A stretch of 25,919 bases of DNA. It comes from a virus. The stretch lies in UHGV virus genome UHGV-0239440. The stretch is one strand, 5' to 3'. The notes below the pieces were generated by a model. That model ran no database searches. It saw nothing but the letters and a program-made list of their open reading frames with translations, and was not told where the DNA came from. A program made the position numbers and the translations under genes. The first letter of the stretch is position 1; every line of letters starts with the position of its first letter. Positions 9,003-14,731 of the stretch are shown here, piece after piece.

Positions 9003-9079
9003 CTCTGTTTAGCTCAGCTTGGTAGAGCGTTCCGTTTGGGGCGGTAAGGCCGGAGGTTCAAGTCCTCCAACAGAGACCA
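9003..9079 (+). tRNA. tRNA-Pro (anticodon TGG)
   Basis: Hand-folded cloverleaf: acceptor CTCTGTT/AACAGAG, anticodon loop TTTGGGG, T-arm GGAGG-TTCAAGT-CCTCC, encoded CCA. Confidence 0.8.
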
Positions 9080-9086
9080 AATTAAT

Positions 9087-9164
9087 GTTCCAGTAGACAA
9101 AATGGTATAGTCACCACTCTTTCAAAGTGGATATCTGAGGGTTCAAATCCCTTCTGGAACGCCA
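9087..9164 (+). tRNA. tRNA-Glu (anticodon TTC)
   Basis: Acceptor GTTCCAG/CTGGAAC perfect; anticodon stem CCACT/AGTGG loop CTTTCAA; T-loop TTCAAAT; CCA encoded. Confidence 0.75.
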
Positions 9165-9171
9165 GTTTTGA

Positions 9172-9191
9172 CAGAAGACCAATTGCAGCAA
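9172..9191 (+). repeat. spacer motif CAGAAGACC-N5-CAGCAA, copy 1
   Basis: CAGAAGACC aattg CAGCAA; preceded by TTTTGA. Confidence 0.7.
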
Positions 9192-9255
9192 ACTTAATCT
9201 TATTCATCTGAAGGTAAATCGGACAAAGAAGAGTTTTGGTATGGTCATTAAGAAT

Positions 9256-9332
9256 TGCGGGTATAGAGAAAGGGCGTCTCACATGTCTCATTAGCATGGT
9301 ATCGGCAGGTTCGACTCCTGCACCCGCCTCCA
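9256..9332 (+). tRNA. tRNA with CAT anticodon (Met or Ile2)
   Basis: Anticodon stem CATGT/GCATG loop CTCATTA; T-arm GCAGG-TTCGACT-CCTGC; 3-prime ACCCGCC-T-CCA; 5-prime boundary uncertain by 1 nt (possible 1-72 mismatch). Confidence 0.6.
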
Positions 9333-9338
9333 ATTTTG

Positions 9339-9358
9339 CAGAAGACCGTATGCAGCAA
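9339..9358 (+). repeat. spacer motif CAGAAGACC-N5-CAGCAA, copy 2
   Basis: CAGAAGACC gtatg CAGCAA; preceded by ATTTTG. Confidence 0.7.
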
Positions 9359-9409
9359 TAAACTACTTTTTGCGGATAAAAGAAAAAACACGGTCTGGCA
9401 ATGTATTAA

Positions 9410-9486
9410 GGTTAGGAAGCACATAAGGTATGTGCGGTCGCCTGTTAAGCGAATGGCACAGGGTTCGAATCCCTGACTAACCGCCA
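9410..9486 (+). tRNA. tRNA-Asn (anticodon GTT)
   Basis: D-stem GCAC/GTGC, anticodon stem GTCGC/GCGAA loop CTGTTAA, T-arm CAGGG-TTCGAAT-CCCTG, CCA encoded. Confidence 0.8.
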
Positions 9487-9557
9487 AATTTAGGAGAGAA
9501 GCGATTGCTCACCGATTTGTAAGGTGCAAGTCCTTAGCCTGAATAGAATAATAAAAT

Positions 9558-9645
9558 GTGTCGTTATCCCGTAGATGGTAGCGGTGGGGACTGTAAATCC
9601 CTTGTCATTAAGACTCGGTAGGTTCGACTCCTACACGGCACACCA
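9558..9645 (+). tRNA. tRNA-Tyr (anticodon GTA), class II with long variable arm
   Basis: 88 nt; acceptor GTGTCGT/ACGGCAC; anticodon stem GGGGA/TCCCT loop CTGTAAA; T-arm GTAGG-TTCGACT-CCTAC. Confidence 0.75.
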
Positions 9646-9651
9646 AATAAA

Positions 9652-9729
9652 GGTTATGTAGTTTAATCTGGTTAAAATACTCCCCTGTCACGGGAGATGA
9701 TGAGTGTTCGAGTCACTTCATAACCGCCA
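9652..9729 (+). tRNA. tRNA-Asp (anticodon GTC)
   Basis: Acceptor GGTTATG/CATAACC, anticodon stem CTCCC/GGGAG loop CTGTCAC, discriminator G, CCA encoded. Confidence 0.8.
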
Positions 9730-9782
9730 AATTATAATAAGTATTTCAAAATGATGTTTGAGAGGGCTATTTAGCCCCTCCC

Positions 9783-9811
9783 TTAAAGAGTTCTTACGAG
9801 TATTCTTTAAA
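9783..9811 (+). repeat. AT-rich hairpin element with conserved GTTCTTACGAG loop, copy A
   Basis: TTAAAGA-GTTCTTACGAGTA-TTCTTTAA. Confidence 0.6.
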
Positions 9812-9815
9812 GGAG

Positions 9816-9835
9816 CAGAAGACCAAATACAGCAA
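9816..9835 (+). repeat. spacer motif CAGAAGACC-N5-CAGCAA, copy 3
   Basis: CAGAAGACC aaata CAGCAA. Confidence 0.7.
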
Positions 9836-9902
9836 GTTACTTAAAATTTCAAGCCAATTTAATTTTGAAAAATTTAAAACTTGGTCTGGCTCAACAAATT
9901 TA

Positions 9903-12817: not shown

Positions 12818-13371
12818 GATATCTGAAGTATGCTTCATGGATTTTCTTAGCTTTGTTAGAGCCATTTGCAGCAATCTTAGCAGTTATCTTAGCACCCTTT
12901 GTAGTCCCATTCTACAGTGAGAAGAAAGGACATCTACCTTTTGGATTCAGATGGATGGAGACATATGACAACCCAATTGATGGTGATAAAGGTCATGTTG
13001 AACGATGGGCTAAGATTAGAAAGATTGGTAAGCTTGGTGTCTATATGCAGAGAGTCGGTTGGCTCTGGAGAAACAAAGCTTATAACTTCTCTTACCATGT
13101 GTTAGGAAGAGATGTAAAAGATGTTACTAAGTGGAAAGGTAATATCAATGTAAGTTCTAACCCTGAAGATAATCAGACAGGTTATCTCCTAATGTGGAAC
13201 AGTAATGCTTGGGGGTTATTCGCTTTTGTACCATCAATTAAAATCTTTGGTAAACAATTCTACTGGAGAATTTATGTTGGATGGAAACTTAAAAGTGTTG
13301 TCCCAGAAGAAAGAGCATTCTCAAGGGAAAGAGTTATGTTGGCATTCTTTATTCATCCACTAAGAAAGTAA
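12814..13371 (+). CDS. putative membrane protein (185 aa)
   Basis: ORF track; N-terminal hydrophobic segment WIFLALLEPFAAILAVILAPFVVPF; GAGGA RBS. Confidence 0.55.
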   Translation: MRYLKYASWIFLALLEPFAAILAVILAPFVVPFYSEKKGHLPFGFRWMETYDNPIDGDKGHVERWAKIRKIGKLGVYMQRVGWLWRNKAYNFSYHVLGRDVKDVTKWKGNINVSSNPEDNQTGYLLMWNSNAWGLFAFVPSIKIFGKQFYWRIYVGWKLKSVVPEERAFSRERVMLAFFIHPLRK

Positions 13372-13379
13372 AGATTTAA

Positions 13380-13455
13380 AGGGGATTAGTTTACAAGGTT
13401 AAAACCTCGGTCTTTGAAATCGAAGAAGTTGGTTCAATTCCAACATCCCCCGCCA
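13380..13455 (+). tRNA. tRNA-Gln (anticodon TTG)
   Basis: Unpaired 1-72 (A-C), anticodon stem TCGGT/ATCGA loop CTTTGAA, T-arm GTTGG-TTCAATT-CCAAC, discriminator G. Confidence 0.7.
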
Positions 13456-13457
13456 AT

Positions 13458-13536
13458 GCTCCATTACTCCAATTGGCAGAGAGGCCAGACTTAAAATCTG
13501 TGTTATGTATCGGTTCGAATCCGATATGGAGTACCA
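13458..13536 (+). tRNA. tRNA with anticodon TAA (leucine anticodon) but short variable loop
   Basis: Acceptor GCTCCAT/ATGGAGT; anticodon stem CAGA/TCTG loop CTTAAAA; T-arm ATCGG-TTCGAAT-CCGAT; discriminator A; 79 nt; D-arm nearly identical to 12398-12475. Confidence 0.55.
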
Positions 13537-13541
13537 AATTT

Positions 13542-13617
13542 AGCGGTATAGCATAACTGGCAATGCAGCAGTCTCTGAAGCTGTCTTATTAAGGTTCAAA
13601 TCCTTATGCCGCTGCCA
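13542..13617 (+). tRNA. tRNA-Gln (anticodon CTG)
   Basis: Acceptor AGCGGTA/TGCCGCT; D-stem GCAT/ATGC; anticodon stem GCAGT/GCTGT loop CTCTGAA; discriminator G. Confidence 0.7.
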
Positions 13618-13620
13618 CTT

Positions 13621-13646
13621 CTAAGGGTTCTTACGAGAGTCCTTAA
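13621..13646 (+). repeat. hairpin element, copy B (3 nt upstream of tRNA-His)
   Basis: CTAAGG-GTTCTTACGAGAGT-CCTTAA, stem TAAGG/CCTTA. Confidence 0.6.
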
Positions 13647-13648
13647 AT

Positions 13649-13724
13649 GTGGCCTTATCATAAATGGTAATGACCCATGCTGTGAACATGGTCTATACGG
13701 GTTCAAATCCCGTAGGTCACCCCA
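13649..13724 (+). tRNA. tRNA-His (anticodon GTG)
   Basis: Acceptor GTGGCCT/AGGTCAC; anticodon stem CCATG/CATGG loop CTGTGAA; discriminator C; nucleotide at -1 is T, so no encoded G-1. Confidence 0.75.
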
Positions 13725-13730
13725 ATTCAT

Positions 13731-13806
13731 AGTCCAAGTAGCTTATATGGTTAAAGCGCGTGTCTGAAAAACATGAGAAGAGGGTTCAAATCCCAATGGA
13801 CTACCA
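13731..13806 (+). tRNA. tRNA-Phe (anticodon GAA)
   Basis: Acceptor AGTCCAA/ATGGACT (6/7); anticodon stem CGTGT/ACATG loop CTGAAAA; T-loop TTCAAAT. Confidence 0.7.
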
Positions 13807-13822
13807 ATTTCAAAGGTGCTTA

Positions 13823-14557
13823 ATGAAAGAGATGACAGAACAAGGTAAGGAGATTTTTAATCTCTTAAAAACCGGTAGAGGGTTTTCTAATCCCCTTATT
13901 ACTGGTGCAGCAGTTCTCGGTGGAACCGTAGCTGCCTCTACATCACTTGTAAGCTCTATTAGCTCTGTAACAGACCCTACAATAAAGGATAAACTTGTTG
14001 CTGCTGGACTTACAACAGTTCTGCTTAACAGCTTTACAACGAGTCTGACAAGCACTACATCAACCACTAAGACATTGACAGATTACGGTCAAAAGTCTAT
14101 TGATGAGTTTTCATCACGTATGCAGGTAGCAAAAGGCTATTCTAATGTTATGGGTGCAGCAGGAGAGCAAGTCGGTTGTACACCATTTAGTGGTATTATG
14201 GGTGTTGCTACAGAGTACGGTCAAAAAGCTATTGACACAATCAACAGTACACTAGACAGTGTTAATGATGTATTAAGTGACTTACAAGATGCTATTGATA
14301 AAGGTCTTGATACTGTTTCTGATTTAGCTAACCAAGCTGTTAGCAAGATTAATGAAGGTATCTCGAAGATTACAGCTTATGCAGATGAAGTTGTGCAGAT
14401 GATTGAAGAAGAAGCTGCCCTTATTGCAGAGTACCTTAAAACGAATATCAATGGGTTCTTAGCAGGTATCTTACCAGACTGGTTTGATGATGCTTGTAAA
14501 ACTGGTGTGATTGACACTATTGCAACACCAGAAATGAAGAACGCATTACAGAAATAA
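13823..14557 (+). CDS. hypothetical protein, hydrophobic N-terminal segment and Ser/Thr-rich and coiled-coil regions (244 aa)
   Basis: ORF track 13760-14557 trimmed to ATG at 13823 because the longer form overlaps tRNA-Phe; AAGGTG RBS-like upstream. Confidence 0.5.
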   Translation: MKEMTEQGKEIFNLLKTGRGFSNPLITGAAVLGGTVAASTSLVSSISSVTDPTIKDKLVAAGLTTVLLNSFTTSLTSTTSTTKTLTDYGQKSIDEFSSRMQVAKGYSNVMGAAGEQVGCTPFSGIMGVATEYGQKAIDTINSTLDSVNDVLSDLQDAIDKGLDTVSDLANQAVSKINEGISKITAYADEVVQMIEEEAALIAEYLKTNINGFLAGILPDWFDDACKTGVIDTIATPEMKNALQK

Positions 14558-14558
14558 T

Positions 14559-14651
14559 GGAAGATTAACCCTAAAAGGTAAGGGAGCAGTTTGCTAAACT
14601 GCCAGTAGCTGAGAAATCGGTGTACCAGTTCAAGTCTGGTATCTTCCTCCA
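14559..14651 (+). tRNA. tRNA-Ser (anticodon GCT), class II
   Basis: 93 nt; acceptor GGAAGAT/ATCTTCC perfect; anticodon stem GCAGT/ACTGC loop TTGCTAA; long variable arm; T-arm ACCAG-TTCAAGT-CTGGT. Confidence 0.8.
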
Positions 14652-14655
14652 ATTT

Positions 14656-14731
14656 GAATCCGTGACAGAAATGGCTATGTGCCTGTCTGCAAAACAGGTT
14701 TATAAGGGTTCGAGTCCCTTCGGATTCTCCA
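14656..14731 (+). tRNA. tRNA-Cys (anticodon GCA)
   Basis: Acceptor GAATCCG/CGGATTC perfect; anticodon stem CCTGT/ACAGG loop CTGCAAA; discriminator T; T-loop TTCGAGT. Confidence 0.8.

Follow-up and report, generated by a model that had tools for sequence, protein, structure and literature searches.

A Felix O1-type phage tRNA island behind a Ro60-like gene, with probable Y RNA genes in its unannotated gaps

We analyzed the transfer RNA (tRNA) island at positions 9003-14731 of the virus genome UHGV-0239440; the whole stretch of 25,919 nucleotides (nt) is referred to here as the window. What is new is that the island lies directly behind a gene for a Ro60-like protein and holds, in its unannotated gaps, the likely partner RNAs of that protein; the only earlier hint is a 2024 preprint that speculated on Y RNAs among these tRNAs (PMC11482910). 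The overall explanation that we regard as probable is a Felix O1-type cluster that supplies codon decoders together with the RNA half of a Ro60-Y RNA module. A preliminary description of the island was right about the tRNA genes, and its proposal that they offset codon usage is supported; its second proposal, replacement of host tRNAs cleaved by nucleases, is not supported, and both the Ro60-like gene and the gap RNAs were missed.

The open reading frame (ORF) upstream of the island encodes a protein with Pfam matches to DUF2828 and DUF7788 only, and a match to phrog_850 ('RNA-binding protein') in PHROG. Homologs occur in 710 phage records, and mycobacteriophage proteins annotated as 'Ro-like RNA binding protein' are 33% identical (E = 1e-76). 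The AlphaFold2 (AF2) model made from a 48-sequence alignment (pLDDT 87.6, pTM 0.88), for which a single-sequence model with a pLDDT of 43 was set aside, shows a HEAT-repeat ring followed by a C-terminal von Willebrand factor A (vWA) domain. The latter carries the MIDAS motif (metal ion-dependent adhesion site) D279-x-S281-x-S283, which is invariant in the 48 homologs. In a Foldseek search of the Protein Data Bank (PDB), the top 11 matches were all Ro60/TROVE structures aligned over their full length (TMq 0.47-0.68, probability 1.00), including Xenopus Ro60, Deinococcus Rsr, human Ro60 complexes and the Ro60 of Thermus phage phiLo (2I91, 1YVP, 2NVO, 9KOP, 9L5Y, and 9NFA among them). Two results weigh against this assignment: the Pfam TROVE domain is not matched, and neither phmmer nor a profile search found a Ro60 of the PDB, such that the protein does not belong to Ro60/TROVE by sequence. 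Judged by its modeled fold, it is a Ro60-fold protein.

The motif CAGAAGACCnnUnnCAGCAA occurs in four copies in the island (repeat family D10; at 9168, 9335, 9812, and 9899), each with a complementary nnGGUCUGG 45-115 nt downstream. Upon folding, the four elements have the same closing design, consisting of a 4-bp outer stem (UGAC/GUCA, UUGC/GCAA, GAGC/GCUC, and UUAC/GUAA), an AGA-versus-G internal loop and a 7- to 8-bp inner helix (AGACCGU/ACGGUCU or AGACCAA/UUGGUCU). Common to all Y-like elements is this bulged closing helix, nnnC-AGA-AGACCnn...nnGGUCU-G-Gnnn, followed by UnCAGCAA; the helix and the CAGCAA motif are together the predicted binding site of the ring protein. A reading of the repeated CAGAAGACC as a promoter or homing endonuclease site was ruled out, because the downstream partner of each copy covaries with it.

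The longest of the four elements (core 9907-10033) has the closing helix AGACCGUU/AACGGUCU, the UUACAGCAA motif and a V hairpin. These are followed by a canonical T-arm (9959-9975, GAAGG-UUCGAUU-CCUUC), a closed 7-bp hairpin with a tetraloop, which replaces the acceptor stem (9976-9993), U8 with a D-arm (9994-10012, GUGU-AAUGGUA-GCAC), and an A-rich linker. Such a permuted tRNA-like topology (V, T, acceptor-like, D) is the hallmark of YrlA-type bacterial Y RNAs (Chen et al., 2014, PMC4201824). The order of the arms and the pairing of the ends are seen both in the minimum free energy fold and in the alignment to a covariance model (CM; positions 1-129, four helices), and the tRNA invariants U8, A14, G18G19, A21, and T-loop UUCGAUU are present. 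YrlA genes are expected within 4 kb of a Ro60 ortholog on the same strand, and the element is found on the plus strand 1.07 kb downstream of the stop codon at 8837. It scores 59.3 bits (E = 1.3e-9) with the CM, which is our own build and not the model of the 2014 authors. Other observations count against a YrlA identity. The YrlA motif GNCGAA(N0-1)G is absent, the window elements having G/A-C-A-G-A-A-G, one base off (one relative, L018, has ACGAAG, and the others have neither); at the Levitt pair 15:48 the window copy has A15.C48, where 8 of 10 relatives have a covarying A:U or G:C; and no Rfam 15 model matches the Y-like RNAs of the window. As location, strand, topology and CM agree with YrlA while the motif is inexact and the Levitt pair is A.C, we have good but not complete confidence that 9907-10033 is a YrlA-type Y RNA of the DUF2828 branch, an assignment made at the level of sequence and predicted structure. 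This region is found in 252 phage records, where the annotations that we sampled are blank or read 'hypothetical protein'.

The E-values of the three short elements (Table 1) were obtained by running the model on the window alone with filters off, and the tRNA-like core is deleted in these matches. Short element 1 is the weakest copy, with a G.A at the conserved second helix pair that is intact in Felix O1 (L001 2173-2240); its poor statistics (E = 0.08) and the mismatch speak against it. Yersinia phage P778 and contig L010, of which the Ro-like proteins are 53% and 48% identical, carry the same elements with other helix sequences, and both the outer and the inner stems covary among the paralogs and with P778 and L010. 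With less confidence than for the long element, two to three of the short ones may be regarded as YrlB-like companions. The YrlA-type RNA and these short paralogs are the probable partners of the Ro60-like protein.

For a comparative test we took 80 IMG/VR loci with genes for proteins related to the Ro-like one (39-99% identity), all of which were scanned with a descriptor for a T-arm directly before a closed hairpin and a D-arm. This module adjoins the Ro-like gene on the same strand in many unrelated contigs, and lies approximately 100 nt downstream of gp54 in mycobacteriophage Rumpelstiltskin. In eleven such RNAs, 111-128 nt in length, the helix begins with W-G and precedes CAGCAA by exactly 10 nt. 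They further share a YUAAA element, arms of the T, acceptor-like and D types, an A-rich linker, and a 3' strand that closes with W and then G; the helix sequence is different in all 11. Plain MAFFT misplaced the variable stems, and an N-padded, structure-guided alignment was used in which N cells were ignored in pair counts. In nine clean non-Felix sequences, 97.6% of cells pair, compared to 61% after shuffling and 35-42% after sliding, and 19 of 23 pairs, including all seven of the closing helix, change on both sides. Helices were placed by hand, and these pair counts therefore lean towards structure, which is a point against them; the leave-one-out search and the strand bias are free of this lean. 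The leave-one-out CM (R1), built from nine non-Felix Ro-adjacent RNAs including that of Rumpelstiltskin, was searched against 904 kb. It recovered the long window element end to end as the only strong match in the window, and none of the 26 tRNAs at E < 0.01. All of its 47 matches are on the strand of the Ro-like gene, mostly within about 1.5 kb of it. A loose regular expression for the closing module has a background of approximately 3.6 matches per window, and was for this reason not used as evidence alone.

A rival reading is that the Y-like elements are not Ro partners but processing spacers and remnants of decayed tRNAs, in which the 3' half of one gene is fused to the 5' half of its neighbor, and that they persist only through their place in a conserved precursor. 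This could be argued from their distance of 11-13 nt to the flanking tRNAs, their tRNA-derived T- and D-arms, the missing canonical motif and the degenerate first element, but is very improbable, since the closing helices covary in phages without other shared nucleotide similarity, CAGCAA and its fixed spacing are conserved from mycobacteriophage to Felix O1, and the matches, with their uniform strand, track the Ro-like gene even in loci without tRNAs (e.g., L003, L014, L019, and L025).

As for how these RNAs would be made and used, co-transcription might start at the sigma-70-like promoter matches that follow the Ro-like gene and tRNA-Ile, and end at the terminator-like hairpin at 14894, although the total of sigma-70-like matches is not above that in shuffled sequences and these are consensus matches only. 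The tRNAs would be transcribed as multi-gene precursors from which host tRNA-processing enzymes excise them, and the same machinery could release the Y RNAs from the same precursors. The Ro60-like/Y RNA particle would then act on RNA during infection, in surveillance or counter-defence, by analogy with Rsr-Y RNA-polynucleotide phosphorylase (PNPase) complexes, the phiLo Ro60 and the Ppl phenotype of phage Bas63.

Ro-like genes and tRNA arrays occur together more widely. Of 75 non-Felix IMG/VR loci, 30 have genes for tRNA or transfer-messenger RNA (tmRNA) no farther than 6 kb from the Ro-like gene; 17 have at least three. All 173 of these genes are on the strand of the Ro-like gene, and their density is approximately 3-fold higher downstream than upstream, suggesting that the Ro-like gene tends to come first, as in the window. 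The profile uses internal distance and strand only, and a structural-protein bait returned only Felix-like loci; without an external background, the linkage is a description and not a demonstrated enrichment. In the metagenomic phage contigs L027, L029, L032, L036, L051, and L079, tmRNA genes are found no more than 6 kb from a DUF2828-type Ro-like gene; two of these tmRNA genes are permuted. At least three tandem Y-like or YrlA-like RNAs are found beside the Ro-like gene in L073 (7386-8110 and 10484-10607), L039 (7403-7636), and L079, indicating that multi-copy arrays are not peculiar to Felix O1-type phages.

A more speculative proposal, to which we assign a low probability, is that the Ro60-like gene works as a single unit with the tRNA array, that this unit has recurred in unrelated phages, and that the particle acts on the phage's own tRNA pool. 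With equal reserve, it might survey or repair damaged or misfolded tRNAs, or the tRNA-mimic Y RNA might be a decoy or sensor for tRNA-targeting defences. If true, this would account for the position of Ro-like genes at the head of tRNA/tmRNA arrays in many lineages, and a Trp-like RNA and a 150-nt long-stem RNA of the island would be further components.

Both of these RNAs are further conserved, predicted products of the island. The long-stem RNA is present in all Felix-like relatives with the same architecture and in two sequence variants; their closing stems of approximately 24 bp differ by at least five double compensatory changes, and an inner hairpin CAGAC-loop(..AGCAA)-GUCUG is kept across the variants. 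In the window, the RNA includes a small AGACC/GGUCU hairpin, its loop reading ..AGCAA, besides a conserved AUUCUAGAUU loop; its end is 2 nt short of tRNA-Lys.

The Trp-like gene was called by neither ARAGORN nor Rfam. It has a perfect acceptor stem, encoded CCA, T-loop UUCAACU and anticodon CCA, together with a non-canonical D-arm, a 12-nt D-loop, T-stem mismatches and a 31.39 C.A that widens the anticodon loop, and it falls short of a canonical tRNA with a G18G19 D-arm, 5-bp T stem and 7-nt anticodon loop. The gene is conserved in Felix-like loci, among them Felix O1, where it is unannotated, and in P778 three anticodon-stem pairs are exchanged compensatorily. Its sequence indicates that it works like, or derives from, a tRNA, and makes it a candidate decoding tRNA; if functional, it would supply the missing 20th isotype. 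The single atypical tRNA-like gene noted earlier is an undercount, as there are at least two: the Trp(CCA)-like gene (11380-11462) and the permuted tRNA-like module inside the Y RNA (9959-10012). In P778 (L002), a tRNA-like stretch at 10009-10149 has a paired acceptor GCGGGUG/CACCUGC, a canonical T-arm, an approximately 70-nt middle insertion and a weak match to a tmRNA model; it may be a tRNA with an intron or one enlarged in some other way.

The island itself is real, ordinary for a Felixounavirus, and previously published. ARAGORN, run on the whole window, places 26 tRNA genes between 9003 and 14731, every one on the plus strand, and none outside. Start and end coordinates agree with the preliminary description, as does the list of isotypes (Pro, Glu, Asn, Tyr, Asp, Lys twice, Ile, Arg twice, Ser twice, Ala, Gly, Thr, Val, Gln twice, His, Phe, Cys, two CAU, and three Leu). 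The concern that automated tools might return far fewer tRNAs was not borne out, as 24 of the 26 also pass the gathering score (29 bits) of the Rfam tRNA model RF00005, with 33-70 bits. The two below it, CAU-1 (9256) and Tyr (9558), are called by ARAGORN, and their counterparts score poorly or carry a 'pseudo' flag in Table 1 of the Felix O1 genome paper (PMC3185647). CCA, described as mostly encoded, is so in 25 of 26, Ser-UGA being the exception. The 26 genes cover 19 isotypes, with Trp the sole one absent, and the anticodons mostly have U34.

With a 7-kb query across the island, 314 phage records were matched, 193 of them over at least 80% of the query. These records, 93-97% identical to the query, belong to Felix O1-like phages of Escherichia, Salmonella, Shigella, and Citrobacter. 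Felix O1 itself (RefSeq NC_005282) is 94.1% identical over 95% of the 7 kb and has the same feature order: ORF42 'RNA-binding protein', a tRNA cluster broken by HNH endonuclease genes, ORF48, ORF49 and terminase. By sequence identity and synteny, the segment is the Felixounavirus (Felix O1-type) tRNA cluster. That cluster was published in 2010, when several of its tRNAs were argued to compensate low-G+C codon usage (Whichard et al., 2010, PMC3185647), and the same set of 26 tRNAs for 19 amino acids was re-analyzed in the relative Sf14 (Ross and Doore, 2025, PMC12482277). The phage tRNA island reading was right, and had been reported in these papers along with its codon rationale.

Codon usage in 26 long ORFs of the window (6,059 codons) was compared with that in 37 long ORFs of a 50-kb E. 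coli K-12 segment. Relative to E. coli, the phage is enriched in the Watson-Crick cognate codons of its 26 anticodons, with a mean log2 ratio of relative synonymous codon usage (RSCU) of +0.36 versus -0.63 for the other codons (Mann-Whitney p = 0.0027), and the largest shifts are seen for AGA, ACA, CUA, UUA, CCA, and UCA. This enrichment supports codon supply, in agreement with the 2010 analysis (PMC3185647), the Sf14 study (PMC12482277) and the earlier suggestion of a codon-usage offset. The tRNAs would supply decoders for A-ending codons, which are much commoner in this AT-rich phage than in its enterobacterial host. A point against is that in Bas63 tRNA knock-outs are mostly non-essential in laboratory hosts (PMC11482910), suggesting that any benefit is conditional.

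The same knock-outs argue against a more far-reaching role, which we consider a real possibility without favoring it: that the host chromosome and tRNA supply are destroyed, and late translation runs largely on the near-complete phage set. This 'all-destructive' model is favored for Sf14, and the Sf14 study gives the late-gene tRNA adaptation index as highest with the phage pool alone (PMC12482277). The 19 isotypes, or 20 if the conserved Trp-like gene is counted, would fit it, whereas a set with one tRNA for each codon box leaves some of the 61 codons unread.

We think it unlikely that the set mainly replaces host tRNAs lost to anticodon nucleases or other tRNA-targeting defences, with the codon match secondary. 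Anticodon nucleases and colicins classically target the tRNAs Lys-UUU, Tyr, Asn, Asp, Arg-UCU, and Arg-ACG. In the window, the anticodon loops of all these are identical to those of the host (Shigella values from Table 8 of PMC12482277), including the Lys-UUU loop, which was read by hand as CUUUUAA, and nuclease escape, as put forward in the preliminary description, is thereby not supported. On the same grounds it was explicitly rejected for the near-identical Sf14 tRNA set (PMC12482277), and the significant codon enrichment also speaks against it. Approximately 14 of 25 comparable loops do differ from the host at position 32 or 38 (the Val loop has A32), the Bas63 counterpart of the adjacent Ro60-like gene counters a defence system, and nuclease-resistant tRNAs are documented in other phages according to van den Berg (2023) as cited in PMC11482910. 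Escape might still operate on nucleases that read other parts of the tRNA.

Codon supply alongside a Ro60-Y RNA module would have consequences beyond this locus. With the probable Y RNA genes mapped, what had been a published guess becomes testable in tractable E. coli and Salmonella phages, of which hundreds are sequenced, and the RNAs for deletion, mutation or pull-down with the Ro60-like anti-defence protein are defined. The large DUF2828/DUF7788 phage family is by these results a Ro60 branch with recognizable probable partner RNAs, which would extend Ro60-Y RNA biology to many phages and ties it physically to phage tRNA arrays. Such islands are under-annotated, with approximately 1 kb of 'empty' spacer here holding conserved structured RNAs.

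Table 1. Features of the tRNA island and its flanks (window coordinates).
Feature	Position	Strand	Basis
Ro60-like protein gene, 471 aa, DUF2828 + DUF7788, predicted TROVE-like helical ring + vWA	7422..8837	+	Pfam, PHROG, AF2, Foldseek
Two sigma-70-like promoter matches, between Ro-like gene and first tRNA	8856..8976	+	10/12 consensus matches each
tRNA-Pro(UGG)	9003..9079	+	ARAGORN, Rfam
tRNA-Glu(UUC)	9087..9164	+	ARAGORN, Rfam
Putative short Y-like RNA 1, core 9176-9243	9168..9247	+	D10 repeat; R1 16.5 bits, E=0.08
tRNA(CAU) no. 1, atypical: U1.C72 mismatch, U37, loop CUCAUUA	9256..9332	+	ARAGORN; below Rfam gathering score
Putative short Y-like RNA 2, core 9343-9397, UUGC-AGA-AGACCGU...CAGCAA...ACGGUCU-G-GCAA	9336..9401	+	Fold; R1 22 bits, E=5e-3, core-deleted full-length match
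tRNA-Asn(GUU)	9410..9486	+	ARAGORN, Rfam
tRNA-Tyr(GUA), long variable arm	9558..9645	+	ARAGORN; tRNA-Sec model 29.9 bits
tRNA-Asp(GUC)	9652..9729	+	ARAGORN, Rfam
Putative short Y-like RNA 3, core 9820-9888, GAGC-AGA-AGACCAA...CAGCAA...UUGGUCU-G-GCUC	9813..9892	+	Fold z=-2.5; R1 29.5 bits, E=1.2e-4
Putative YrlA-type Y RNA, core 9907-10033 (127 nt)	9900..10037	+	Fold; descriptor scan; leave-one-out CM R1 59.3 bits, E=1.3e-9
~150-nt long-stem RNA: 24-bp closing stem, three inner hairpins incl. CAGACC-CUUUAGCAA-GGUCUG	10035..10183	+	Fold z=-5.4
tRNA-Lys(UUU)	10186..10261	+	ARAGORN, Rfam
tRNA(CAU) no. 2, three consecutive G-C pairs in anticodon stem	10266..10342	+	ARAGORN, Rfam
Free-standing HNH homing endonuclease gene, between tRNA(CAU)-2 and tRNA-Ile	10359..10844	+	PHROG HNH families; Felix O1 ORF44
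tRNA-Ile(GAU)	10838..10913	+	ARAGORN, Rfam
Best sigma-70-like promoter match of island, TTGACA-17-TATAGT	10929..10957	+	11/12
tRNA-Arg(UCU)	11161..11237	+	ARAGORN, Rfam
Atypical tRNA-Trp(CCA)-like gene	11380..11462	+	Rfam tRNA-Sec model 21.3 bits; conservation
tRNA-Ser(UGA), without encoded CCA	11476..11565	+	ARAGORN, Rfam
Long near-perfect hairpin, 26-nt arms, 1 nt before tRNA-Leu(UAG)	11729..11818	+	Inverted repeat I1; fold z=-3.9
tRNA-Leu(UAG)	11820..11897	+	ARAGORN, Rfam
tRNA-Lys(CUU)	11905..11980	+	ARAGORN, Rfam
tRNA-Ala(UGC)	11987..12062	+	ARAGORN, Rfam
tRNA-Gly(UCC)	12069..12143	+	ARAGORN, Rfam
tRNA-Thr(UGU)	12150..12226	+	ARAGORN, Rfam
tRNA-Val(UAC)	12322..12396	+	ARAGORN, Rfam
tRNA-Leu(CAA)	12398..12475	+	ARAGORN, Rfam
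tRNA-Arg(ACG)	12481..12556	+	ARAGORN, Rfam
Two protein genes: 80 aa phrog_14202, 185 aa DUF7338	12575..13371	+	Pfam, PHROG
tRNA-Gln(UUG)	13380..13455	+	ARAGORN, Rfam
tRNA-Leu(UAA)	13458..13536	+	ARAGORN, Rfam
tRNA-Gln(CUG)	13542..13617	+	ARAGORN, Rfam
tRNA-His(GUG)	13649..13724	+	ARAGORN, Rfam
tRNA-Phe(GAA)	13731..13806	+	ARAGORN, Rfam
DUF7217 protein gene, Felix O1 ORF49 homolog	13823..14557	+	Pfam; RefSeq comparison
tRNA-Ser(GCU)	14559..14651	+	ARAGORN, Rfam
tRNA-Cys(GCA)	14656..14731	+	ARAGORN, Rfam
Terminator-like hairpin + U run past island end	14894..14919	+	Motif scan; count not above chance

Several other features of the island deserve mention. The HNH gene overlaps the start of tRNA-Ile by 7 nt; it is missing at the CAU-2/Ile junction in the relatives L005, L006, and L008, where a single nucleotide separates the two tRNAs. 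In Felix O1, additional HNH genes occupy the sites at which the window retains tRNA-Arg(UCU) and an uninterrupted Gly-Thr junction. Both CAU tRNAs are unusual, and either may be an initiator, an elongator Met or an Ile2 tRNA. The product of ORF49, Gp49, is given as a Felix O1 virion protein in the 2010 proteome (PMC3185647). The hairpin before tRNA-Leu(UAG) is possibly an RNase III-type processing site. A hairpin of approximately 25 nt with a UACG tetraloop (..AGAGUUCU-UACG-AGuaUUCUU..) is repeated at 9788-9812, 11130-11160, and 13621-13647, and is also found in P778 (L002 ~9715-9760). The 95-nt Thr-Val spacer (12227-12321) is 96-100% conserved in Felix-like loci and forms an extended stem (z=-2.9).

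When compared with known systems, the window shares with the Felix O1, wV8 and Sf14 clusters a genus-level genome with a nucleotide identity of 94-97%, the gene order (ORF42, tRNA island, terminase) and the anticodons. It differs from the Felix O1 record in four tRNAs that are unannotated there (CAU-2, Arg-UCU, Ser-UGA, and Ser-GCU) and in the placement of the HNH insertions; the papers and records on the three phages do not describe the non-tRNA RNAs of the island. In bacteriophage T4, the tRNA cluster includes two small stable RNAs (species 1 and 2, or RNA C and D) that are processed from tRNA precursors; we know of no Ro60-like gene adjoining it.

Bas63 belongs to the same genus, and its gp130, located upstream of the tRNAs in a syntenic position, is presumably the ortholog of ORF 7422-8837. 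Gp130 has a Ro60-like structure and counters the Ppl defence (PhageMaP preprint, PMC11482910). Its authors guessed that Y RNAs are among the tRNAs, i.e., that some annotated tRNAs are Y RNAs (PMC11482910). In contrast, the annotated tRNAs of the window look like tRNAs, and the putative Y RNAs are in unannotated spacers.

Thermus phage phiLo likewise encodes a Ro60-fold protein, which is a top Foldseek match of the window protein, with two Y-like RNAs, Yrl1 and Yrl2, adjacent to it, and a hijack of host PNPase against defence has been proposed (PMC12135203; PDB 9KOP and 9L5Y). Unlike the window elements, the phiLo Yrls are upstream of the gene, have a bulge of sequence CGAA, have not been described as mimicking tRNA and adjoin no tRNA array.

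With respect to the bacterial and mycobacteriophage YrlA and Ro60/Rsr systems (Chen et al., 2014, PMC4201824), the window differs in its partner protein, which is of the DUF2828/DUF7788 branch and not recognizable as TROVE by sequence, in the 5' motif GCAGAAG instead of GNCGAA(N)G with an unformed Levitt pair, and in genes that are embedded in a 26-tRNA array in four or five copies or variants. In common with these systems, the putative YrlA-type RNA lies approximately 1.1 kb from the Ro60-like gene on the same strand, its ends are paired, it has V, T, acceptor-like and D stem-loops with tRNA-invariant nucleotides, shorter YrlB-like companions appear to accompany it, and the CM groups it with the mycobacteriophage RNA.

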